DNA of 32,000 nt, taken from Gemmata obscuriglobus (GTDB taxonomy: Bacteria; Planctomycetota; Planctomycetia; Gemmatales; Gemmataceae). Both the position numbers and the translations under genes were made by a program. The DNA is taken from positions 7,080,001 to 7,112,000 of the forward strand of contig NZ_CP042911.1 in NCBI RefSeq assembly GCF_008065095.1, written 5' to 3'. Below the pieces are notes generated by a model. The model searched no databases and was not told the DNA's origin. It saw nothing but the letters and a program-made list of their open reading frames with translations. Shown in pieces: positions 16,943-28,683 of this stretch. Numbering within the stretch: the first letter of the stretch is position 1; each line of letters begins with the position of its first letter.

Positions 16943-17866
16943 CTACTGCCAGTCGGCGTCGCGTGTGATGCCGTGTTTGCGCATCTTGCCGTAGAGTGTG
17001 GTGGGCTTCAGCCCGAGACGGTGAGCCGCCCCGCCGGGGCCGTACACGCGACCGCCGGCCGCCCGCAGGGCCGCCACGATGCGCGCCTTTTCCTGCTCGG
17101 CCCAGGTGCGCGCCGTTTCGACCGGAGGCGCCCCGAGCCACGCGGGATCGACAACCAGTTCGTCCCCTTCGCTCACGATCACCGCGCGTTCGATGACGTT
17201 CTGAAGCTCGCGCGCGTTCCCGGGCCAGTCGTACGCGGCCAGCGTGCGCAGCGTCGAAGCGGAGACGGTGTTCGCCGGCTTGTTGTGCCGGGTCGCGAAA
17301 TGTTGGAGGAAGTGCGCGGCGAGGGCCGGTATGTCGTCCCGGCGGTCGCGGAGCGCGGGGAGTTGGATCGGGAACACGTTCAGCCGGTAGAACAGGTCGG
17401 CGCGAAAGGTGCGTTCGCGAACACCGGCGGTGAGGTCGCAGTTGGTGGCCGCGATCAGGCGCACGTCCACCGGAACCGGCTTGCACCCGCCGAGCAACTG
17501 AACCACCCGCTCCTGAAGGGTACGAAGCAGCGCGACCTGCGCGTCGGCCGTCAGTTCGCCGACTTCGTCCAGGAAGAGCGTGCCGCCGTTCGCCTGCTCG
17601 AACCGGCCGGCGTGCCGGCGCGCGGCACCGGTGAAGGCGCCGGCCTCGAAGCCGAACAGTTCGGCGACCACCAGCGATTGCGGCAGCGCGCCGCAGTTGA
17701 CTGGTACGAACGCCTCTCGCGCCCGCGGGCTCTGCGCGTGCAGCGACCGGGCGACGAGTTCCTTGCCGGTCCCGGTTTCGCCCAGGATGAGGACGGTCGC
17801 GTCGGTTCCGGCCACCTGCTGGATGGCCTTGCGCACGCCCGGAAGGGCGCCGATGAGGGGTGTCAT
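16943..17866 (-). CDS. Sigma-54-dependent transcriptional activator (bEBP) made only of an AAA+ domain and a Fis-type HTH, with no N-terminal sensory domain.
   Basis: Walker A GETGTGKE, the GAFTGA loop (FGFEAGAFTGA), Walker B GGTLFLDEVGEL, RLIAATN, FRADLFYRLNVF, YDWPGNARELQNVIERA and the C-terminal HTH AAHRLGLKPTTLYGKMRKHGI are all present. ATG at 17866 overlaps the upstream stop. The in-frame extension to 18202 is Arg-rich and overlaps the DUF1653 CDS. Confidence 0.9.
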   Translation of the reverse strand: MTPLIGALPGVRKAIQQVAGTDATVLILGETGTGKELVARSLHAQSPRAREAFVPVNCGALPQSLVVAELFGFEAGAFTGAARRHAGRFEQANGGTLFLDEVGELTADAQVALLRTLQERVVQLLGGCKPVPVDVRLIAATNCDLTAGVRERTFRADLFYRLNVFPIQLPALRDRRDDIPALAAHFLQHFATRHNKPANTVSASTLRTLAAYDWPGNARELQNVIERAVIVSEGDELVVDPAWLGAPPVETARTWAEQEKARIVAALRAAGGRVYGPGGAAHRLGLKPTTLYGKMRKHGITRDADWQ

Positions 17867-18087
17867 GACGGCCCAACGTATGCGAACCGCGGGACCGGTT
17901 CGCCGCTCACGGTGACGGTTTCGAGGAACATCGCGAGCGGGCGCACCCACAGCCCGGTGTCGTTGTACAGCGGCCGGTACACCACCAGCGGCTCCTCCGT
18001 CTCGCTGTGCCGGGCGACGCCGACCACCTCGTACTCGCCGCCCTTGTAGTGACGGTACCGTCCCGGTCGCGGTTCGTGACTCGACAT
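17863..18087 (-). CDS. DUF1653 domain protein (74 aa).
   Basis: GRYRHYKGGEYEVVGVARHSETEEPLVVYRPLYNDTGLWVRPLAMF is the characteristic DUF1653 core. Its TGA (17865-17863) overlaps the ATG (17866-17864) of the activator gene. Confidence 0.8.
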   Translation of the reverse strand: MSSHEPRPGRYRHYKGGEYEVVGVARHSETEEPLVVYRPLYNDTGLWVRPLAMFLETVTVSGEPVPRFAYVGPS

Positions 18088-18203
18088 TGTGTCTTTCCCT
18101 GGGACCGCTGCGGTCCCGACGCCTGCTCCACGCGGAGGTGCGCTGCGATGAGCCGATCACCCGCGGGTGCCCGAACCGACCGTGATCCCGCGGGGCGAGC
18201 AAC

Positions 18204-18749
18204 TCAGTTCTTCGGCTTCACGGTGTGTGGCGCCGGGGCCACGGGCAGCGCCGGCTTCTTCGGCTCTTCGGGCTTTTTCGCGGGCTGTTCGACCTTCTTC
18301 GTCTCGTCCGGCTTCTTGACGGGGGTCTCGGTCTTCTTCGTCTCGTCCGGCTTCTTGGCAGTCGGTTCGGGCGACTTCTTCGGTGCGGCGGTGGCGGCCT
18401 TCAGGTTCTTGCGCACCGCTTCGATGGTCTCGTGCAGGAGGAACGCTTTGCGGTCCGCGCTCGCTTCTTTGTCCGCCGCCTCCAGCCCGGCGTCGATGAG
18501 CTTTTGCGCCTCGGGGCGGTGGCCGATCAGCGGGCGGACGGTCGCCAGCGCGCCCTGGTACACGCGGTACGTGCCGACGAAGTCCTTGCTCTCGTTGTAC
18601 AGGTCCGCGCCCCGGTTGTGCACGTCCCGGAGCGTGTCGATCACGAGCCGGTCGAAGGCGGTCGCGTCGGGCAGCTTCGGCTCGTCCGCGGTGCCGCGCA
18701 GCCCCAGCAGCGCCACGAGGGCGAGTGCCGCGAGTCCTCGGGTGGTCAT
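18204..18749 (-). CDS. Secreted hypothetical protein with a helical N-domain and a Lys/Pro/Glu-rich repetitive C-terminal tail.
   Basis: ATG at 18749 has GAGGT 8 nt upstream. The signal peptide is MTTRGLAALALVALLGLRGTA. The tail reads KKPDETKKTETPV/KKPDETKKVEQPA..KKPEEPKKP. An exact 25-nt DNA direct repeat occurs at 18294-18318 and 18333-18357. Confidence 0.65.
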   Translation of the reverse strand: MTTRGLAALALVALLGLRGTADEPKLPDATAFDRLVIDTLRDVHNRGADLYNESKDFVGTYRVYQGALATVRPLIGHRPEAQKLIDAGLEAADKEASADRKAFLLHETIEAVRKNLKAATAAPKKSPEPTAKKPDETKKTETPVKKPDETKKVEQPAKKPEEPKKPALPVAPAPHTVKPKN

Positions 18750-18889
18750 GTGGTGTACCTCAGTTTCGTCTTCCGTGTCGAAGTTCCGTGCCATCATGAC
18801 GCGCCGGGGTCGGGGTTGCAACGCGACTCGGGTTCCGCGTACCATCGGTGCGAGTGCCCCCACACACCGTCCCGCACGGAAGCGGACCC

Positions 18890-19750
18890 GTGGCCGACAA
18901 ACTGACACAACAAGTCCTCGACGCCCTGACCCGCGCCGCGGCCGAACCGACCGGCCTCCCGCTCTACGCGGGCAAGGCCGACCTGGGCCTGTTCCCGAAC
19001 GTCGCGGGCGCGAAGCCGGCCGCGCAGAAGTGCCTCGCCGAAGACCTCGTGCGGGTGGTCGGGGCGGACCCGAAGAGCAAAACGCCCCGCGACCTCTACG
19101 GCCTCACCGACAAGGGGTGGGAGTACCTGCTGGCGGCGGTGAACCCGAAGCAGGTGCTGGAGGACTTCGTGCGCGTGCTCGAGGCGCGCCAGGGCGAGGT
19201 CACCGATCTGCTCGCCACGGCCCGCCGCATGGCCGACAGCCTCCAGGGGCTCCGGGACGCCGTGTCGCGCGTGCTGCCGGCGGTCACGGCGGTGCGGGTG
19301 CGCGAAGCGCTCCCCTCGGTCGCCGCCCCGAGGGTCGAAGAGCCGGTGAGCGAGTTCGTGCCTTCGACACACGCTGGGGTTCCGGAGGCGCCGGCCCTGA
19401 GCCCGTTCCTGCTCCGGGGCGGGGTCGAGGAGGGACTGCTCCCCGCGCCCGCACTCGCGCCGGCGGTGCTCGCGCACCTCGCCGAGCACACCGGCCCCAC
19501 GGACTGCCCCCTGCCGGAACTGTTCCGCGCCCTCGCGCAGACCGCCGCGCTCACCATCGGCGAGTTCCACGACTGCCTGCGGGAGCTGCACTCCGAGGGA
19601 CGGGTCTCCCTGCCGCAGTGGACCGGCCCGCTGTACGCCCTGCCGGAGCCGCAGTACGCCTTGCTCATCGGCCACGGCATCGCGTACTACGCCTCGCTCC
19701 GCGAAGCCGGGGTCCGGGAGATCACCGGCTCGGCCCTGTACGGTTCCTGA
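18890..19750 (+). CDS. Hypothetical protein (~287 aa) with two winged-helix-like regions separated by a coiled/Pro-Ala linker; first gene of an operon with the AAA+ protein.
   Basis: The frame is coding-like throughout. The N-terminal region reads KCLAEDLVRVVG..PRDLYGLTDKGWEYLL and the C-terminal region LPELFRALAQTAALTIGEFHDCLRELHSEGRVSL. The start is uncertain (GTG at 18848, 18854 or 18890). The stop lies 49 nt before the next ATG. Confidence 0.6.
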   Translation: MADKLTQQVLDALTRAAAEPTGLPLYAGKADLGLFPNVAGAKPAAQKCLAEDLVRVVGADPKSKTPRDLYGLTDKGWEYLLAAVNPKQVLEDFVRVLEARQGEVTDLLATARRMADSLQGLRDAVSRVLPAVTAVRVREALPSVAAPRVEEPVSEFVPSTHAGVPEAPALSPFLLRGGVEEGLLPAPALAPAVLAHLAEHTGPTDCPLPELFRALAQTAALTIGEFHDCLRELHSEGRVSLPQWTGPLYALPEPQYALLIGHGIAYYASLREAGVREITGSALYGS

Positions 19751-19799
19751 CCCCTGCCCCTCGCCTGGTCGCCGACGCTCGAACAAGGAGGTTCATCTG

Positions 19800-22406
19800 A
19801 TGACCGCTACCGCCATCGCGCCCGAGCCGATCGCCTTGACCGGGCGCACCCGCGACGTGCTCAAGCGGGCCGGGAACCCGTTCCGCAACTACTTCGCCCG
19901 CAACCCCGACGACGAGGTGTGCGCGCGGTACCACGTGCCGGAGCTGTTCGCCGCCGAGCGCGACCTGCTCCACGCCATCATCGACCTGTACCGGTACGAC
20001 CCGCAGACCCACAGCGAGGTGGTGCCCATCCTGGGGAACAAGGGCGCCGGCAAGACGCACCTGCTGCACAGCATCAAGCACGGCACCAGCGGGCAGTGGC
20101 AGTTACTGGTCACCCCCGGCGTGTACCAGCGCGACTCGGACTTCCTCGAGTACCTGCTGTTCCAGATCATCGACACGCTGCTCGGGGGCGGGAAGCAGAA
20201 GGGCGTCCGCCCGCTCGAGTACATCAGCGACCAGCTCGTGCGGCGGCAGCTCGGCGTCGCGCTGCGCGAGCTGAGCGACGAGGAGAAGGTGGAGCTGTTC
20301 CCGCCGCCGGGGCTGGGCCGCTGGGCGCGGCGCCTGGGGATGGGCACGCAGCAGGCCCGCGAGCGGGCCGAATGGCTCGCCGAGAACCTGAGCGGGTACT
20401 CCAACTTCGCCCGGGTGCCCACGCCGGTGCTCCAGGCCCTCAGCGAGGCCGGGCTGACCGCGCAAAAGGCGTTCGACCTCGTGAGCGCCTACGTCCAGAA
20501 GAACGAGGCGCACAACACCGCCGGGCTGATGCGCCGGCACATCTTCCAGGGGTTCGCGAAGGCCGCCCTGCTCCGCGACGAGAGCGACCTCGCCAGCTTC
20601 CTCACGTTCGGGTTCGCGGAACTCGAGTTCCACGTCCGCCCGACGCGCCAGGACCTCGTGCTCGCGCTGTTCAAGGTGCTGACGGAGGTGTTCCGCAGTC
20701 TGAAGACGCCGGTCGTGGTCGCGTTCGACCAGCTCGAGGACCTGCTGCTCGCCCGCCGCACCGACGACGCCCACAAGACCGCCGAGGCGTTCTTCGCCGG
20801 CATCGTGCAGGTGATGCACCAGATCGACGGCCTGTGCTTCCTGATCTTCGCCGAGCGCGGGCTGTGGAACCGGTTCGTGCCCTCGCTGGACGGGTACATT
20901 CAGGACCGGCTCAACAACCCGGTCCACGTGCCGAAGCACGGCACCGTGAAGGCCATCCGCCTCGAAGCGCCGCCGAGCGACCTCGTCCGCCGGGTGGTCG
21001 AGGCGCGCCTCCGGCCGTGCCTCGCCGAGCTGCCGAACGGCGAACCGGTGCCCGAGATCTTCCCGTTCGCCGACGAGCAGATACTCCGCATCGCGCGCAC
21101 CGAACCGACCCTGCGCGACATGCTCCAGCAGTTCCGCCACCTGTTCGACCACGTCGTGTACGGCCCGGACGACCTGACCGCCGAGCGCCGCCCCGCCCCC
21201 GCGCCGGTCGAGGCGCCGGCGCCGGCCCCCGCCGCCCGCCCGGCCCCGTCCGGGTTCGTGGAGTTGCCGGCGGCGCGGTTCGACGTGTCAGCCGAACTCG
21301 CGCCCGCGCCGGCCCTGGTGGCCCCGACCGAGCCGACGCTCGACGACTGGCCGGTGCCGGTGGACCACGCGAGCCGGCTCGCGGCGCTGCTCGGGCACGA
21401 TGAGGGCGAAGCCCCCGAGAAGGTCGAGTTCACCTTCAAGCAGGTGGACGTGATCGAGGCGCCGGCCACCGCCCCGTTGATGCTAGCCCCGGCGCCGGTG
21501 GACGTGCCCCTCGCAGTTGCGGTTGAGGAGCAGGAGCGCGTCGAGGAGCAAGCGCGAGCGGGAGAAGTCAGCGTCCCGAACGCCCCAACGGCCGAGCCGG
21601 TGAGCGAACCCGTAGCGGTGTTCACCCACGAGCCCGTGAGCGAATCCCCGCCGGCGCCAGAGTTGATCGAGAGTGCGCCCAGCCCGCTCGAAGCAATTGC
21701 CGCCCCGGAGGTGCCGGCCGCCCAGAGCTTTCCGGCGGAAGTACCGGCAGACGTACCGGCCCCCGCTGTGGTGAAGCTGACCGCCGCCGCGCTCGTCGAG
21801 CTGTGGGAGCAGGAGCAGCGGGCCGCGCGGCGGAAGCTCGAGCCGGAAGGGGCTCTCACGGGCGCCACGCGCGAGCTTCAGGCCGGCCTGGGCGCGTTCC
21901 TGAGCACCTGCCACGAGCACGGCGTGAAGGTCGGGCCGTGGCGCTTGCAGCACGTCGTCGACGAGTGGTCGTACGGCGAGCACCCGACCTACGGCGTGGT
22001 CACGATCGCGCACTGGGCCTGCAAGGACGGGCAGCCCTGGCGCATGGGGCTGGGGCTGTTCCTGGCCCGCGGCGCCGGAAAGCCGAAGGACCTTGAGGTG
22101 AAGCTCGGCGTGCTCGAGACCGAGCCCGCGATGGTGGACCTGTTGGTGCTGCTGCGACCGGAAGACGACATCGCGACCACGGGCAAGAGCAAGACGCTGC
22201 TGAACGACGCAGAGCGGCGCGGCAAGCACACGCGGCTGGAGCCGGTGTCGCTGGACGGGTTCGCGCAGATGTACGCGTTCCCGCGGTGGCTCGCGGTGGT
22301 ACGCGAGTCGCTGCCCGAGGGCGCCCCGCTGCCGAACCTCGCGGACGTGATCCAGGAAAAGTGCGAGAAACTGCTCGAGCAGGTGTGCATGCCGGTTCAG
22401 GGCTGA
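19800..22406 (+). CDS. Large AAA+/P-loop NTPase (868 aa) of unknown function, with an insertion between Walker A and B, a long disordered Pro/Ala/Glu linker and an unknown C-terminal domain.
   Basis: A strong RBS AAGGAGG (19785-19791) precedes the ATG at 19800. Walker A is ILGNKGAGKTHLLHSI (nt ~20034-20057) and Walker B is PVVVAFDQLEDLL (nt ~20712-20741). CFLIFAERG is sensor-1-like, and AIRLEAPPSDLVRRVVEARL is lid-like. Low-complexity sequence spans aa ~460-660, and a globular C-terminal region spans aa ~661-868. Confidence 0.85.
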   Translation: MTATAIAPEPIALTGRTRDVLKRAGNPFRNYFARNPDDEVCARYHVPELFAAERDLLHAIIDLYRYDPQTHSEVVPILGNKGAGKTHLLHSIKHGTSGQWQLLVTPGVYQRDSDFLEYLLFQIIDTLLGGGKQKGVRPLEYISDQLVRRQLGVALRELSDEEKVELFPPPGLGRWARRLGMGTQQARERAEWLAENLSGYSNFARVPTPVLQALSEAGLTAQKAFDLVSAYVQKNEAHNTAGLMRRHIFQGFAKAALLRDESDLASFLTFGFAELEFHVRPTRQDLVLALFKVLTEVFRSLKTPVVVAFDQLEDLLLARRTDDAHKTAEAFFAGIVQVMHQIDGLCFLIFAERGLWNRFVPSLDGYIQDRLNNPVHVPKHGTVKAIRLEAPPSDLVRRVVEARLRPCLAELPNGEPVPEIFPFADEQILRIARTEPTLRDMLQQFRHLFDHVVYGPDDLTAERRPAPAPVEAPAPAPAARPAPSGFVELPAARFDVSAELAPAPALVAPTEPTLDDWPVPVDHASRLAALLGHDEGEAPEKVEFTFKQVDVIEAPATAPLMLAPAPVDVPLAVAVEEQERVEEQARAGEVSVPNAPTAEPVSEPVAVFTHEPVSESPPAPELIESAPSPLEAIAAPEVPAAQSFPAEVPADVPAPAVVKLTAAALVELWEQEQRAARRKLEPEGALTGATRELQAGLGAFLSTCHEHGVKVGPWRLQHVVDEWSYGEHPTYGVVTIAHWACKDGQPWRMGLGLFLARGAGKPKDLEVKLGVLETEPAMVDLLVLLRPEDDIATTGKSKTLLNDAERRGKHTRLEPVSLDGFAQMYAFPRWLAVVRESLPEGAPLPNLADVIQEKCEKLLEQVCMPVQG

Positions 22407-22414
22407 TTCGCCGG

Positions 22415-22443
22415 CGCCCGCGTGCCAAGGTGGCACGCGGGCG
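22415..22443 (+). terminator. GC-rich hairpin 9 nt after the stop of the AAA+ gene.
   Basis: cccgcgtgcca (22417-22427) and tggcacgcggg (22431-22441) form a perfect palindrome that extends to 13 bp. CTTTTC follows a few nt downstream. Confidence 0.5.
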
Positions 22444-22508
22444 TGCTCGCTTTTCGTCCCGGTTTCGCTAACTCATCATCGGAATCGCCCGTCCCCCGCA
22501 CGGCCCCG

Positions 22509-23822
22509 ATGACTTACGACGAAGCCCTGGCCTTCTGGTACGGACGCATCAACTACGAGGTGCGGTCCGCCGGGCCGCTGGACCTCAAGTTGGAGCGGAT
22601 GCGCGCGCTCCTGCGGCGTCTCGGCGACCCGCAGGACCGGCTGCGCCTCGTTCACGTCACCGGGACAAAGGGCAAGGGCTCCACGTGCGCGATGCTCGAG
22701 TCGGTGTTGCGTACGGCGGGCTACCGTGCGGGGCTGTTCACGTCCCCGCATTTGGCCCACATCGAAGAGCGGATGCAGGTCGACCGCGTGCCCATTTCCC
22801 ACGGGGAACTGGCTGCGTGCATGGAGGAGGTGGCCCCCGCGGTTCGCGCGATGGAGACCGACCCCCGGTTCCCGTCACCGACGTTCTTCGAGATCGGGAC
22901 GGCGCTGGGGTTCTTGCACTTCGTGCGACGCCGCTGCGACATCGCGCTGATCGAAGTGGGGCTCGGCGGGCGGTTCGACAGTACTAACGTGTGCCAACCG
23001 CTTGTGTCGGTGATCACGAACGTCGGACCGGACCACATGGCCCAGCTCGGCACCACGCTCGAAGCGATCGCGTTCCAGAAAGCGGGAATCATCAAGCGCC
23101 GGGTGCCGGTGGTGAGCGGCGTGACCCAGGACGGGCCACGCGCCGTGATTCGCCAAGTGGCGGCCGAGTTGAGTGCTCCAATATGGGAAGTGGGTGTGAA
23201 GCCCTGTTCTCCAATCCCTTCCTTCAAAAGGGAAGAACTTCATGTCGCGGAGGAGGTCGGGGTGAGAGCCGCTCCCATTGGCCTACTCGGTGCGCACCAG
23301 CGTGCGAATGCGGCGGTGGCGACGGCAGTACTCGATCGGCTCCGAACGGCCGGGATGCACATTCCGGCGGCGGCCGTCGCGCGCGGGCTGGGCGAGGTAA
23401 AATGGCCGGCACGCGTCGAGGTGGTGCGCGAACGCCCGACCACAATTCTCGACACCGCGCACAACGTGCCGAGCGCAGAGGCACTCGTGACCACGCTGCG
23501 CGAGGCGTTCCCGAACGCGGGCACGAAGCGTGTGGTGTTTGCGGTGTCGTCGGACAAGCAGTTTGCTGAGATACTTCGCGTTCTTGCGAGCTACTTCGAC
23601 CATTTCTACTTCACAAAGTACAGCAACAACCCGCGAGGCGTGCCGACCGAAGCGCTCGCCACCGCACTCGCCGCGGTCGCGCCGGGTAAACCGTTCACGC
23701 TTCATGCGACCGCACCGAAGGCTTGGAACGCGGCCGTTTCCACCGTAACTGATACGGACTTGGTGTGCGTAACCGGCAGCGTGTTCCTGGCCGGCGAACT
23801 GCGCCCGCTGATGGCGTCGTGA
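22509..23822 (+). CDS. folC: Bifunctional folylpolyglutamate synthase / dihydrofolate synthase.
   Basis: MTYDEALAFWYGRINYE, the P-loop VHVTGTKGKGST, LFTSPHL, IEVGLGGRFDSTNV, ITNVGPDHM and GSVFLAGE are family-typical. ATG at 22509 was chosen; the ORF extension from 22422 runs through the terminator hairpin. Confidence 0.9.
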   Translation: MTYDEALAFWYGRINYEVRSAGPLDLKLERMRALLRRLGDPQDRLRLVHVTGTKGKGSTCAMLESVLRTAGYRAGLFTSPHLAHIEERMQVDRVPISHGELAACMEEVAPAVRAMETDPRFPSPTFFEIGTALGFLHFVRRRCDIALIEVGLGGRFDSTNVCQPLVSVITNVGPDHMAQLGTTLEAIAFQKAGIIKRRVPVVSGVTQDGPRAVIRQVAAELSAPIWEVGVKPCSPIPSFKREELHVAEEVGVRAAPIGLLGAHQRANAAVATAVLDRLRTAGMHIPAAAVARGLGEVKWPARVEVVRERPTTILDTAHNVPSAEALVTTLREAFPNAGTKRVVFAVSSDKQFAEILRVLASYFDHFYFTKYSNNPRGVPTEALATALAAVAPGKPFTLHATAPKAWNAAVSTVTDTDLVCVTGSVFLAGELRPLMAS

Positions 23823-23890
23823 GCCACGAACACATTTCCGGCCCGTGCCCGCAACTTGTTCCGATAGAAGTGGTAGAATGGCCCGTGCCT

Positions 23891-23920
23891 TCCCGCCCGG
23901 GTCCGCGGACCCGGGCGGGA
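23891..23920 (+). terminator. Perfect GC-rich palindrome downstream of folC.
   Basis: cccgcccgggtccg / cggacccgggcggg (23892-23919) is a 28-nt perfect palindrome about 70 nt after the folC stop. There is no U-tract, so its function is uncertain. Confidence 0.35.
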
Positions 23921-23958
23921 GTGACGCATGCGGCCCCGTAGTGTGGTTAAACGCCTTC

Positions 23959-25764
23959 ATGAAGTTGCTCACCTCGGTGTTCACTCTGAACGGGCGGGTA
24001 CTGCCGGCCGGAACCTGGTTCACGGTCGCAGTGTGCGCATTCGTCATCGGGTTAGAGATCGCCGGGCGGTACGCCGCATCCGACTTGCACGACGGCGCCG
24101 CAGCCCTGGCGCTCGTCGGGGTCGGACTGACGGTCGCGGTGCGGCACCGGCGCGAGCCGCTTCCGTGGGTCGCACGGCTGGCCGCGCTGGGCCGGCGGGC
24201 GGCCGGATCAACCTCGTGGCTCCGGTACGACCACGGCATCGATCTGCGCGGTGTACCCCCGCTCCCGCGACGCACCCCACCGGTGGTCTTCGTGCTTGCC
24301 TTGGTGCTGTTCACGTGGGGAGGACTAGCGGCGGGGGCGTGGGCGGTGTTTCCCGCCGGCTGGCGCGCGGTCGGGATCTACTCGTCGTACACGTTGTATC
24401 TGGCCCTGCTGCTGGTGCTCTGGGGCACGCTCTTGACGGTCGCGTGCGTGGGCCTGTTTGTGCCCATTGCCGCGCTGGATAAGTGGCTCCGACGGTGGCT
24501 CGGGGACACTGACAGACGGGGAGCCGAACTGGCGGCAGTTGTCGGGTACGCGGTGGGCGTAGCGCTCGTCGCCTGGGAGTTCCCGCCGGCCCCGGTGCTG
24601 CTGCTGTGCCTCGTTGTGGCGGTAAGTGCTTGGGCCGCGTACGTGCCGCGCGGCCGCGACGGCGCCGCGCTGCTCTGGCGCGGCTCGGCCGACAAGCCGG
24701 TGTGTGCGGTGCCGCTGCGTCGGGTGCTCGCGACGGTGATCGGGCTGACCGCGCTGCTCGCGTTCGCCGTACTGCTCACCGCGTGCGGCGGGCGACTGTT
24801 CGCTCCCCCACGGGCCGACGACACGATGCCGTTCACCGCGCTTCTCGGAACCGTTGCGGCGTGGTTCCTGCCCGGGTTACTGTGTGTCGTGGTGGTGAAA
24901 CTGAACGGCGCGCGCCGGGGCGACCCGGCGCGCCGCACGCCGCCGACGCTGCACATCGCCGGCGCACATGCGGGTGACGTCCGCTCGGCCGCGCGCATCG
25001 CCCGCCGGTGGGGGTGGGCCGTTCGCACCGCTCCCCAAGCAAGGGAACCGAACCACGTCGGGGTCGAGGTTGTTGAGGAAGCGCGGTCCGAGGCGACCGA
25101 GTTCAATCCGGTCTGGCCCCTTAAAGTGAGCCTCGCCGACCTGCAACTCCGGGCGGTGAAAGAGCGGTTGGAGCGCCGTGACGAGATCAAGGTGCGGCGG
25201 CAACTGTTCCGCGGGCTCCAGAAACTGTTTAAGCGGGCCAGCGTGTTCAAGGGACCGGCGGGCGGCGGGTTCTGGCTCGCCCCCCACTGGTGGTTCGTCG
25301 AGGGCGTCGGCCGGGAGGACGCGGATTCCGCCAGCGAGGAGTCCCCGCCGATGGTCGGCCCGGCCTACAGCCGCGTGCTGCCCAGGCGCGCCCGGCAGCA
25401 CGCGCACGCCGTGCTCCGGGCGACCCAAGTGGACATGATCTTCATTGAAGACGGGGTGACGTTCCGCAACCTGGAGCGCGCGCTGCGCGTGCTAACCGAA
25501 CTGTATGACGTTCACGGCGGGACGCGCCGCGCCGAAGAGATGCACTTCCGCGGGGTACCGAAGGTGCGGGCCATGATCCACGAATACGAGCCCGGTAACC
25601 CGTTCCGCTCGGACCTGTACCCCGAGCCGAAGTTCGACGACCTGTCCCGGGTTCGGGTGCTGCACATTTTCCGGGATCGCGGGGCCAGCGAGGAACTGAC
25701 CGACCAGCCGTTCGACTTCTCGTGGACCCCGGCCCCCGCACCGGTCGGCAGTGCGGGTTGGTGA
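23959..25764 (+). CDS. Polytopic membrane protein (~8 TM helices) with a ~270-aa C-terminal cytoplasmic domain of unknown function.
   Basis: Multiple hydrophobic helices are visible (WFTVAVCAFVIGLEI, VVFVLALVLFTWGGLAAGAWAV, LYLALLLVLWGTLLTVACVGLFV, etc.). The soluble C-terminus contains HWWFVEG and VDMIFIEDGVTFRNLERALRVLTELYDVHGG. ATG at 23959 was preferred because the earlier in-frame ATG at 23878 overlaps a TAGAAT box and would place the 23892-23919 palindrome in the coding sequence. Confidence 0.7.
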   Translation: MKLLTSVFTLNGRVLPAGTWFTVAVCAFVIGLEIAGRYAASDLHDGAAALALVGVGLTVAVRHRREPLPWVARLAALGRRAAGSTSWLRYDHGIDLRGVPPLPRRTPPVVFVLALVLFTWGGLAAGAWAVFPAGWRAVGIYSSYTLYLALLLVLWGTLLTVACVGLFVPIAALDKWLRRWLGDTDRRGAELAAVVGYAVGVALVAWEFPPAPVLLLCLVVAVSAWAAYVPRGRDGAALLWRGSADKPVCAVPLRRVLATVIGLTALLAFAVLLTACGGRLFAPPRADDTMPFTALLGTVAAWFLPGLLCVVVVKLNGARRGDPARRTPPTLHIAGAHAGDVRSAARIARRWGWAVRTAPQAREPNHVGVEVVEEARSEATEFNPVWPLKVSLADLQLRAVKERLERRDEIKVRRQLFRGLQKLFKRASVFKGPAGGGFWLAPHWWFVEGVGREDADSASEESPPMVGPAYSRVLPRRARQHAHAVLRATQVDMIFIEDGVTFRNLERALRVLTELYDVHGGTRRAEEMHFRGVPKVRAMIHEYEPGNPFRSDLYPEPKFDDLSRVRVLHIFRDRGASEELTDQPFDFSWTPAPAPVGSAGW

Positions 25765-27230: not shown

Positions 27231-28466
27231 TCAGTTCACCCGGCGGTCGAAATCGGGGATCTGTGTAAACGCCACCCGCGACGGTGCCGCGTCCCGCATC
27301 CCGAACATCGCGCCCAGGTACACCACGCTCGCGCCGAATTCGGCGTTCACCTCGTCCAGCGCGGCCGAAATATTGCCACCCTGGTGGTCCTCATCGAAGA
27401 GTGATGGGGTTGCGCTCCGGGCCGGAACCAGGTCGCTCAGTACCACCCCCACCTTGAACGGCGCGCCCCCGCGCGGTCGCCCCGCCCACAACTTCGCGAC
27501 CACCGCGACCAGCGCCGGCGTGTCCTGGCACCGGGGCACGCGGGCGCTCTCGTCCCACCGCACGCGCGCGCTCCGGTCCGCACCCAGGAACCGCACTCCG
27601 ACCGACACCGACCCGCACCAGTAGCCGATCTTCCGCAACCGCGCCGCGGCCTTGTGGACCAGTCGCATTAGCACCCCGTACGCCTTCTCGTCCGTGCGCA
27701 GGTTCGGTGGGAGTACGTGTGAGTGGCTCACCGTTTGGCGCCGGGTCGGAGTCTCGGGTACCTCGTCTCCGTGCAACAGCCCGTGCCAGCGCTCGCCGAT
27801 CACTTTGCTGCCCCATACGTCACTCAACGCTTTTGCGGACGCCGCACAGAACTGGGCCACCGTACAGATCCCGCACAGCCTCAGCCGCCGCTCCATCCGC
27901 GGCCCCACTCCCGGAAAGTCGTTCAGTTGTAGCCGGTGGAGCGCGTGCGGCAGGTCGGCGTCGGTGAGAGGGGTCAGCCCGTTCGGCTTTTGCATGTCGG
28001 CGGCCACCTTCGCCAGCAGCACGTTGGGACCGATCCCGATCGAGCACGTCATGCACTCACCGGCCAGATCGTGAATCGCGCGTTTGACCTGCTCTGCGAG
28101 CGCCCGCGCCCGCGCCGGCTCTCGGTCGCTACCGGTCAACTTGCAGGACATCTCGTCGATCGAGCGCACGCTGTCGATCGGGAGGACGCTCCGCACGGCC
28201 GCGAGGATGCGGTTGTGCATGGTGACGTATCGCTTGTGCCCCGTCGAAACGAGTATGATCCCCGGGCACAGCTTGCGGGCCTCCCACACCGGTGTGCCGG
28301 TTTTCACCCCGAACGCTTTCGCTTCGTAACTGGCCGCGATACACGCGGTCGTTTCTGCCCGGGTCGGGATGACGGCAATCGGCTTCCCGCGCAGGTCCGG
28401 GTCGTGCTGCTGCTCGACGGACGCGAAGAACGAGTTCATGTCGATGAAGAGGTACCGGAGCGGCAT
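27231..28466 (-). CDS. Y-family DNA polymerase (DinB/UmuC-like translesion polymerase).
   Basis: YLFIDMNSFFASVEQ (catalytic Asp), AASYEAKAFGVKTGTP, SIDEMSCKLTG (catalytic D-E), CSIGIGPNVLLAKVAADMQKPNG, FPGVGPRMERRL and the C-terminal LDEVNAEFG are present. ATG at 28466 has GGAGA upstream; the GTG at 28487 is an alternative start. Confidence 0.9.
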   Translation of the reverse strand: MPLRYLFIDMNSFFASVEQQHDPDLRGKPIAVIPTRAETTACIAASYEAKAFGVKTGTPVWEARKLCPGIILVSTGHKRYVTMHNRILAAVRSVLPIDSVRSIDEMSCKLTGSDREPARARALAEQVKRAIHDLAGECMTCSIGIGPNVLLAKVAADMQKPNGLTPLTDADLPHALHRLQLNDFPGVGPRMERRLRLCGICTVAQFCAASAKALSDVWGSKVIGERWHGLLHGDEVPETPTRRQTVSHSHVLPPNLRTDEKAYGVLMRLVHKAAARLRKIGYWCGSVSVGVRFLGADRSARVRWDESARVPRCQDTPALVAVVAKLWAGRPRGGAPFKVGVVLSDLVPARSATPSLFDEDHQGGNISAALDEVNAEFGASVVYLGAMFGMRDAAPSRVAFTQIPDFDRRVN

Positions 28467-28683
28467 CGCGCGGTCTCCACGGTTCACCCGTTCACCATGG
28501 ACGGGACAGTGTAAATATGTGCGCTAAAATTTCCGGGGGTGCAAGTCGAGGGTCAGGAGTTTCGGAGCGAAATGTGTTTGCCGGGCCTTGCACAACCGGC
28601 AGCCTGTCGCGGCTCGACTTGCATTCGGCAGGCGCGAGACGAAAATACGCGATGTTCCCTCCCTATTCAAACAAGAGACCGCC

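Follow-up and report, generated by a model that had tools for sequence, protein, structure and literature searches.

What is the pair of genes found at positions 18890-22406 of the Gemmata obscuriglobus DNA analyzed here (contig NZ_CP042911.1, positions 7,080,001 to 7,112,000; 32,000 nt, hereafter the window), and does it belong among conflict systems, as suggested in an earlier note on this DNA? The upstream gene (18890-19750, + strand, GTG start) encodes a small protein of 286 aa, 100% identical to G. obscuriglobus GobsT_59760. The downstream gene (19800-22406, + strand, ATG start) encodes a large protein of 868 aa, made up by an AAA+ ATPase, a disordered linker and a C-terminal domain. The genes are co-directional and 49 nt apart, and the Shine-Dalgarno sequence AAGGAGG (19785-19791, + strand) lies 8 nt upstream of the ATPase ATG; open reading frames (ORFs), start at 18890 and Shine-Dalgarno sequence all agree with the earlier description. 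The pair is a real, strongly conserved two-gene operon, core in Gemmatales by presence and synteny, and is best filed as an undescribed AAA_16-type family featuring a novel architecture and an obligate partner.

Homologues of the large protein number more than 1286 in a set of 5.8 billion proteins, the best 120 being 66-97% identical to it; 801 homologues of the small protein were found. With one genome scanned per GTDB species, 214 genomes were identified that encode a relative. The locus counts given below refer to the best 80 loci of these genomes, labelled Gemmata, Frigoriglobus, Fimbriiglobus, Limnoglobus, Urbifossiella, or Gemmataceae/Gemmatales, with a few evidently mislabelled metagenome-assembled genomes (MAGs) besides. 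These two-gene loci are called type I, more distant three-gene relatives type II. The small gene resides directly upstream of the large one, on the same strand, in 80/80 loci, and wherever upstream DNA was available the two were never found apart. The flanks change. FolC follows the pair in about half of the loci, and the upstream neighbours seen in the window (a sigma-54 activator, a DUF1653-like gene, a gene for a secreted protein) are kept in some loci only. A GGAGG-type motif precedes the ATPase ATG in at least 61 of the loci. Among the loci retrieved the closest is that of G. algarum (96-97% identity).

Mean identity to the window protein, calculated over 29 orthologues, is 87% in the ATPase domain (ratio of nonsynonymous to synonymous substitution rates, dN/dS, 0.02-0.08) and 83% in the C-terminal domain (dN/dS 0.04-0.05). 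FolC proteins of other species are 52-76% identical to the window FolC, with the exception of G. algarum (93%). In a crude, midpoint-rooted neighbour-joining tree type I proteins are monophyletic, on a long stem with short internal branches (mean within-clade distance 0.15 vs. 0.79 for type II), nested among very long type II branches, the sister of type I being a two-gene relative at 40% identity. High identity, low dN/dS and synteny mark a core gene inherited vertically, and are not what a defence island would show. As already remarked in the earlier note, no defence genes flank the pair, the neighbours being the sigma-54 activator, FolC, a histidine kinase and DinB. The family was found neither in plasmids and phages (tblastn) nor in IMG/VR (pattern scan).

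Type I pairs were met in MAG contigs labelled Singulisphaera, Isosphaera, Alcaligenaceae or Bacteroidales (L006, L023, L030, L042, L047, L069 and L080). The large genes of these contigs are 66-78% identical to that of Gemmata, and the bins are probably mislabelled or contaminated by Gemmataceae DNA.

The earlier note had framed the pair as a conflict system, to be compared with BrxC/PglY-type ATPases. According to such a reading the ATPase would be a STAND-like sensor, the C-terminal domain, or the membrane protein encoded by type II loci, the effector, and the winged-helix protein a regulator or a sensor of foreign DNA, type I being a widely fixed variant. The type I data speak against this framing: partners are syntenic in all loci, the clade is slow, the genes are under purifying selection, flanks are ordinary and change from locus to locus, and neither a membrane partner nor PglZ or PglX genes accompany the pair. 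The note had conceded that its claim would fail were the pair core, invariant and endowed with a known role. Core and invariant the pair proved to be; as to a known role, no paper on either gene came up when the literature was searched by locus tag and by topic.

Architecture of the ATPase and its partner

The large protein belongs to the AAA+ ATPases of the AAA_16/ORC-Cdc6/STAND type, and was modelled with AlphaFold2 (AF2) from an alignment of 70 sequences, including relatives at 24-30% identity (predicted local distance difference test, pLDDT, 82.1; predicted template modelling score, pTM, 0.77). When 30 close orthologues only were aligned the pLDDT was 52, and Foldseek matches were meaningless; the 70-sequence alignment cured both. 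Invariance in the family was judged over 70 members, spanning 24-97% identity.

A conserved N-terminal peptide (residues 17-50, 19848-19949, + strand; pLDDT ~82-93), invariant in Gemmatales and featuring N26-P27-F28, precedes the AAA+ module (residues 51-457, 19950-21170, + strand), which was delimited from the secondary structure of the model and from invariant residues. The elements of the model run in AAA+ order. Strand 1 (residues 73-79) leads into Walker A (residues 79-86, nt 20034-20057, + strand; GNKGAGKTHLLHSI spans residues 79-92) and is followed by strand 2 (residues 102-104) and by a helical insert of 185 aa (residues 115-300, 20142-20699, + strand; pLDDT mostly >90) set between strands 2 and 3. 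Strand 3 (residues 305-309) belongs to Walker B (VVVAFDQLED, residues 305-314, nt 20712-20741, + strand), which holds D310 and E313. Strand 4 (residues 345-352) ends with E352, the conserved R370 is found just ahead of strand 5 (residues 375-383), and a helical bundle carrying R403 and R439 forms the lid (residues 393-454). Residues P27, F28, G79, G82, G84, K85, R245, D310, E313, R370, P422, R439 and W669 are invariant in all 70 members; N26-P27-F28, the insert residues E236, R245 and E296, as well as E352 and R403, are invariant or nearly so. Both Walker motifs had been recognized in the earlier note, and their key residues are among the invariant ones. The helical stretch of about 215 residues said to separate them is confirmed too, K85 and D310 being 225 residues apart and the model all-helical from residue 115 to 300.

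The window protein matches Pfam AAA_16 at E=1e-3 (20.1 bits; cut-off 32.6) and Bac_DnaA with 12.8 bits. Other matches, sub-threshold or limited to the P-loop, are to a Sll1717-type P-loop (E=1e-4, 47 residues), DnaA, Hda and mad8. Sequence searches of Pfam, NCBIfam, PHROGs, PADLOC and PDB with both proteins gave P-loop-level or sub-threshold matches only; profile searches of Pfam, PDB and PADLOC place neither protein in a known family, in line with the earlier view that no described system is at hand. Of 42 distant members compared to Pfam, all match AAA_16 (best E=7e-10), 35 AAA_22, 16 NACHT and 7 ORC-CDC6-like (best E=3e-4), which supports the assignment to ORC/STAND-type ATPases with an atypically large insert.

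Foldseek comparison of the ATPase part to PDB structures returned AAA+ proteins only, all as weak matches (Trip13, Cdc48, Pex1/6, NSF and Aeropyrum ORC2; best E=0.016, TM-score, the template modelling score, <=0.28 for the top matches; probability 0.77 for Aeropyrum ORC2). Trip13, Cdc48, Pex1/6 and NSF, the best matches, favour the hypothesis that the pair is a protein-remodelling or assembly AAA+ machine serving a membrane or envelope process and not directed to DNA, the winged-helix domains working as protein adaptors. Yet scores are low (E>=0.016), profiles favour AAA_16, NACHT and ORC-CDC6-like, and the insert is found at the position typical of the initiator clade.

A recent survey (PMC12839542) recognizes the ORC/Cdc6 clade by three hallmarks: strand 2 is followed by an insert, strand 5 has an arginine at its base, and a C-terminal helical bundle is present. 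The large protein shares with members of this clade (archaeal Orc1/Cdc6; BrxC, BrxD) the P-loop AAA+ core, the insert after strand 2 and the association with winged helices, and in the model the positions of the invariant R370, before strand 5, and R439, in the bundle, would fit the hallmarks. It differs because the insert is a 185-aa helical domain rather than a short helix-extension-helix. No winged helix in cis follows the lid, whose end in the AF2 model falls near residue 457; what is found instead is a disordered linker of 200 aa, and a C-terminal domain that is restriction-endonuclease-like. Scores against the curated ORC/Cdc6 models are below cut-offs. BREX ATPases co-occur with PglZ and a methyltransferase. 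BrxC proteins are 1200-1300 aa long and contain a triad of winged helix-turn-helix, alpha+beta and winged helix-turn-helix domains (PMC12839542). In contrast, the window protein has 868 aa, no Brx match was found in PADLOC, and PglZ, PglX, BrxA and BrxB neighbours are missing both in the window and in the 80 loci.

The likeness to STAND proteins (NACHT/AAA_16, MalT-type, Avs) lies in the AAA_16 and NACHT matches of the distant members, in the extended Walker B and in a nucleotide-switch logic. The pattern D-x-x-[DE] is typical of the extended Walker B of NACHT NTPases, and the large protein has D-x-x-E. AAA_16/NACHT-like NTPases are common in defence, a point in favour of the conflict hypothesis. 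However, NACHT matches are sub-threshold, the model features neither a winged helix nor TPR, WD40 or LRR repeats, and, unlike STAND defence genes, the window pair belongs to a single clade, is core, and resides outside variable islands. With KAP P-loop NTPases the protein has in common that a large insert separates the two Walker motifs, and there are one weak Pfam and one weak PDB match. KAP inserts contain transmembrane helices, whereas the insert found here is soluble and free of hydrophobic segments. No 19-aa segment of the large protein reaches a Kyte-Doolittle value of 1.6, and neither transmembrane segments nor signal peptides were found in the two type I proteins. In PADLOC-DB v2 only P-loop-only matches were obtained (mad8, PDC-S01, Avs2; E>=2e-4). 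In its workings the pair would most resemble an ORC/Cdc6- or STAND-type switch that has a winged-helix partner. It is not BREX, a PADLOC system, KAP, canonical STAND or ORC, because the defining features of each were looked for and not found.

The AAA+ module is followed by the Pro/Ala/Glu-rich spacer of about 200 aa reported earlier (residues 458-660, 21171-21779, + strand), predicted to be disordered (pLDDT <50 for most residues). It contains 21% Ala, 18% Pro and 12% Glu, is also Val-rich, and varies in length from 84 to 249 aa among orthologues, with a mean identity to the window protein of 32% and dN/dS of 0.27-0.71; distant paralogues of ~680-700 aa have a short one. The C-terminal domain (residues 661-868, 21780-22403, + strand), rightly seen as globular in the earlier note, is confidently folded in the model (pLDDT >90), with topology a-a-b-b-b-a-b-a-b-a-a. 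Its Foldseek neighbours are Rpb5 homologues (probability 0.93 in PDB, 0.84 in BFVD), EcoT38I (0.85) and MUS81-EME1 (0.51), all with low TM-scores (<=0.35); presumably, the Rpb5 matches cover the endonuclease-like N-domain of Rpb5. These neighbours and the a-b-b-b-a-b core, which would fit that of PD-(D/E)xK enzymes, suggest a restriction-endonuclease-like fold. The high pTM, reached despite 200 disordered residues, suggests that in the model the domain is packed against the ATPase.

The only C-terminal domain residues conserved family-wide are W669, W714, G732, D764, K768, S797 and W830. No conserved acidic residue or lysine was found on strands 2 and 3 (residues 733-741 and 747-753), D764 and K768 being located on the helix which follows the would-be catalytic strands. 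The lack of conserved catalytic residues on the strands is the reason for reading the domain as a probably non-catalytic module. The lack of the catalytic residues of the resembled fold counts against the effector-like role foreseen in the earlier note, and against the conflict hypothesis.

In the small protein alignments distinguish a MarR/PadR-like winged helix (residues ~1-85), a long helix (residues 86-135), a variable linker (residues 136-190) and a conserved winged-helix-like C-terminal domain (residues 191-270) with invariant G224, F226, H227, D228 and R231. A profile including distant homologues matched in PDB the MarR-family protein 3f3x (E=1.1e-4), the alignment covering the N-terminal ~115 residues over recognition helix, wing and following helix. 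Weaker PDB matches are to the PadR-family protein AphA (E=0.05) and to other PadR-like entries; Pfam PadR is matched below threshold (E>=0.057) by 3/25 family members, MCM4_WHD is sub-threshold as well, and certain database entries have been automatically named PadR. Of the two winged-helix-like regions proposed earlier, the N-terminal one is reasonably supported by these data, the C-terminal one suggested by its residue pattern and the sub-threshold MCM4_WHD match. Folded domains have dN/dS of 0-0.26, the linker of 0.34-0.93. The protein is acidic (isoelectric point 5.3; 6.3 for the N-terminal domain), and differs from MarR/PadR regulators because of the linker, the second conserved domain of ~80 aa, and the obligate pairing with an ATPase gene. 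Resemblance of the F-H-D residues to the STAND MHD motif is superficial. The MHD motif of Apaf-1 and NLR winged-helix domains follows the wing, while FHD is in the helix before it, and STAND structures were not matched.

An ORC/Cdc6-like ATPase lacking a winged helix in cis, next to a partner with winged-helix domains, is what one would expect of a replication- or repair-associated loader which uses a winged helix in trans to mark or remodel chromosomal sites, the C-terminal domain recognizing DNA structure. The Aeropyrum ORC2 match, the weak MCM4_WHD similarity and the restriction-endonuclease-like fold point in the same direction. Against a loader stand the sub-threshold level of all similarity scores and the missing catalytic motif; linked genes are considered below.

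Three-gene relatives

When 1.84 billion cluster representatives were searched exhaustively by profile, only 453 proteins were retrieved at E<=1e-3, and the family is therefore narrow. About 45 of them are full-length type II proteins of 670-750 aa, 24-30% identical, which have the N- and C-domains in common with type I and a short linker. Type II sampling is thin, a word-index profile search with distant members having yielded 7 proteins and a metagenome scan 7 loci; the sample consists of eleven distinct loci, with downstream DNA visible in ten. In every locus with upstream DNA the ATPase gene is directly preceded by the gene of a small-protein homologue (hhalign probability 99.7%, 27-36% identity), usually with a 17-nt overlap.

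The ATPase gene is followed in 10/10 loci by a third gene, which overlaps it by 4-11 nt or starts up to ~170 nt downstream (copies include L081 5753-6400, L082 10061-10747, L084 10212-10943, L086 10256-10975, L089 7719-8447, L090 11112-11705, L091 11063-11803, L101 9105-9827 and L102 8306-9043). Its product, 197-246 aa long, is soluble in its N-terminal part and, in the seven copies analyzed (L081-L091), carries one to three hydrophobic segments toward the C-terminus. The copies scanned have no significant Pfam match (DUF5989 is weak, E=0.058) and no PADLOC match. No homologue of the third gene was detected when the window and the 80 Gemmatales loci were searched for it.

The membrane-anchored third subunit is an argument for the remodelling hypothesis introduced above, according to which the type II membrane protein would be the anchor or the substrate of the machine, and Gemmatales would have lost this anchor or exchanged it for the long linker. 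Further arguments are the acidity of the small protein and the invariance of its 'recognition helix' residues across 27-100% identity, suggesting a fixed protein interface. Yet matches to MarR/PadR DNA-binding proteins were obtained for the partner's N-terminal domain, and type I proteins lack transmembrane segments and signal peptides. We regard such a machine as rather unlikely, and the proposed fate of its anchor likewise.

Type II loci were found in Gemmataceae, in planctomycete-like contigs (with PSCyt/PSD1/DUF1501 neighbours) and in Candidatus Entotheonella, the latter recognized by a neighbouring ETF-alpha protein in the same 90%-identity cluster as ETSY2_18550. The Gemmataceae genome LR594584.1 has both types, type I at 3.61 Mb (L022) and type II at 3.14 Mb (L090), 0.47 Mb apart, the three-gene paralogue being 26% identical to the conserved pair. 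Type I and type II can thus share a genome, and presumably neither makes the other redundant. Housekeeping genes neighbour some type II loci (IF3 and ThrRS, Dus and DprA, HSP90, peptidases); other neighbours are transposases with ThiF/UQ_con, a resolvase, McrBC with a DUF3427 helicase, and a toxin-antitoxin pair. The Entotheonella copy (L082, 1-8000) adjoins two transposase genes (one IS91/Y2 type, one DDE type) and a ThiF (E1-like) gene, and a UQ_con (E2-like) gene is located farther upstream, past the transposases. The ThiF and UQ_con genes look like a bacterial ubiquitin-like conjugation cluster.

Several arguments for the conflict hypothesis come from type II. These loci are highly divergent, occur as a second copy beside type I and also in Entotheonella, a different phylum-level lineage, and are sometimes close to the transposase, resolvase, McrBC or toxin-antitoxin genes just named; moreover, all ten loci with visible downstream DNA encode a small membrane protein, and effectors of abortive infection are frequently of this kind. 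On the other hand half of type II loci reside among housekeeping genes, and neither PADLOC nor the plasmid, phage and IMG/VR searches lend support. A conflict function is better suited to type II than to the locus analyzed here, for which we consider it very unlikely.

Expression signals and neighbouring genes

The ORF of the small protein has an alternative GTG at 18848. All orthologues begin with MADK or VADK, equivalent to 18890; because of this, and of a conserved promoter-like element found between the two candidates, downstream of the GTG at 18848, 18890 is taken as the real start. The region upstream was aligned over 15 orthologous loci. The motif CATCATGAC (18792-18800, + strand), which holds the palindrome TCATGA, is kept even at loci with a different divergent neighbour gene. 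The promoter-like element (18812-18845, + strand) reads GGGGTTGCAAC-N17-TACCAT in the window and GGGGTTGCAAC-N17-TA(C/G)CAT in the alignment, and is made up by a -35-like TTGCAA (18816-18821), an 18-nt spacer and a -10-like TACCAT (18840-18845). The exact pattern GGGGTTGCAAC-N17-TANCAT precedes the small gene in 16 orthologous loci; within the window the element has a single occurrence. A simple sigma-70 scan did not call it. The 8-bp palindrome GTTGCAAC overlaps the -35 sequence and may be a candidate operator for the winged-helix protein; it was noticed in the alignment only, the repeat tool having found no inverted repeats of 8 nt or more at 18700-18920. The leader motif CGCACGGAAGCGGA (18873-18886, + strand), ending 3 nt before the GTG, is nearly invariant in nucleotides in 14/15 aligned loci, and has one exact copy in the window.

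A hairpin resembling an intrinsic terminator (22414-22454, + strand; 14-bp stem with 11 G-C pairs, followed by a T-run) begins 8 nt past the stop codon of the large gene, and the pair is therefore a self-contained transcription unit. In contrast, a hairpin hiding the Shine-Dalgarno sequence of the ATPase gene was discarded. Candidates spotted by eye (GAAC...GTTC, TAGC...GCTA, GTTCCC...GGGAAC) were not retained, as no pairs were formed in RNAalifold, and folding is no better than in shuffled flanks (minimum free energy -6.7 vs. -7.2; Shine-Dalgarno bases paired 3.3 vs. 3.5; p>0.1). Neither Rfam families nor tRNAs were found in the window.

The ORF of FolC (22422-23822, Mur ligase domains) is listed with a GTG at 22422 falling inside the terminator hairpin. 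As the hairpin spans 22414-22454, FolC must start downstream of it, probably at an internal ATG (MTYDEALAFWYG..., ~22506). FolC is followed by an ORF of 639 aa (23845-25764, + strand) with several hydrophobic stretches and no Pfam match, found after FolC also in L004, L006, L050 and L056 (59-79% identity over ~610 aa). On the other side of the pair, a divergent ORF of 182 aa (18204-18752, - strand) has no Pfam match; the N-terminus of its product is signal-peptide-like, and the tail is a repeat rich in Lys, Pro and Glu (KKPDETKK...). It is kept as upstream neighbour in 31/80 orthologous loci (tblastn), and no other flank is retained as often. The longest ORF of the sigma-54 activator (16943-18202) overlaps a 74-aa ORF (17863-18087, - strand), 100% identical in G. 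algarum, which by eye we take to be DUF1653-like. The Sigma54_activat domain begins at residue 123 of the long ORF, whose true start is therefore probably internal.

A gene for a DinB/ImpB-type translesion polymerase (27231-28487, - strand) is located ~5 kb from the window operon, and a DinB-type gene (L090, 6302-7516) ~0.6 kb upstream of one type II operon. The two cases have been counted in favour of the loader hypothesis; they are the only ones, however, and may be a coincidence. Consistent linkage of a helicase, polymerase or recombinase gene was not seen, and we hold a replication or repair loader to be highly unlikely.

Possible roles of the pair

The reading we prefer, tentatively and at somewhat less than an even chance, is that the small protein, as a dimer, serves as DNA-binding adaptor and holds an ATPase switch or oligomer by means of its C-terminal domain, the complex working in a DNA transaction of housekeeping nature. 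The small protein would dimerize via the long helix, bind DNA by the N-terminal winged helix and dock on the ATPase with the C-terminal domain. ATP binding and hydrolysis would promote oligomerization or a conformational switch controlling the action of the complex on DNA, which may be transcriptional control, or chromosome or nucleoid handling. The C-terminal domain of the ATPase, packed back on the AAA+ module, would be a non-catalytic binding or assembly module, and GTTGCAAC, lying over the -35 sequence of the operon itself, a possible autoregulatory site. The type I pair may descend from the more divergent three-gene type II family with its membrane-anchored protein.

Several data weigh against the adaptor-switch reading. 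Neither an experiment nor a structural homologue connects the complex with DNA. The small protein is acidic, and its winged-helix assignment is made of one match at E=1e-4 and sub-threshold Pfam similarities. The most conserved residues of its C-terminal domain fall in the would-be recognition helix, a placement that suits protein-protein contacts no less than DNA binding. For the ATPase, Foldseek gave weak matches, the top ones being remodellers of the classical clade and not initiators. The membrane protein of type II loci, and their occasional transposase, resolvase, McrBC or toxin-antitoxin neighbours, are a hint of a different ancestral biology, and the core status of the pair is deduced from presence and synteny.

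A more specific proposal, which we deem distinctly unlikely, is that of a 'split' ORC/Cdc6-like machine essential in Gemmatales. A mobile, membrane-linked three-gene module would have been domesticated, losing the membrane subunit and gaining the long linker, to become a lineage-specific chromosome or nucleoid factor with its winged helix in trans, in which ATP turnover gates the joining of ATPase and DNA-bound adaptor.

Interest in Gemmata and its relatives comes from an unusual cell biology, with condensed nucleoids, FtsZ-less budding and endomembranes, while a function has been assigned to only a minority of their lineage-specific core genes. Few genes in the window are as strongly constrained as this pair, as comparison of the ATPase domain with FolC indicates. 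A slow core clade and fast, patchy three-gene paralogues, found together in at least one genome, make the family a candidate for a domesticated accessory module. If the pair is truly a DNA-associated ATP switch, it would provide a tractable entry to planctomycete-specific chromosome biology or regulation.

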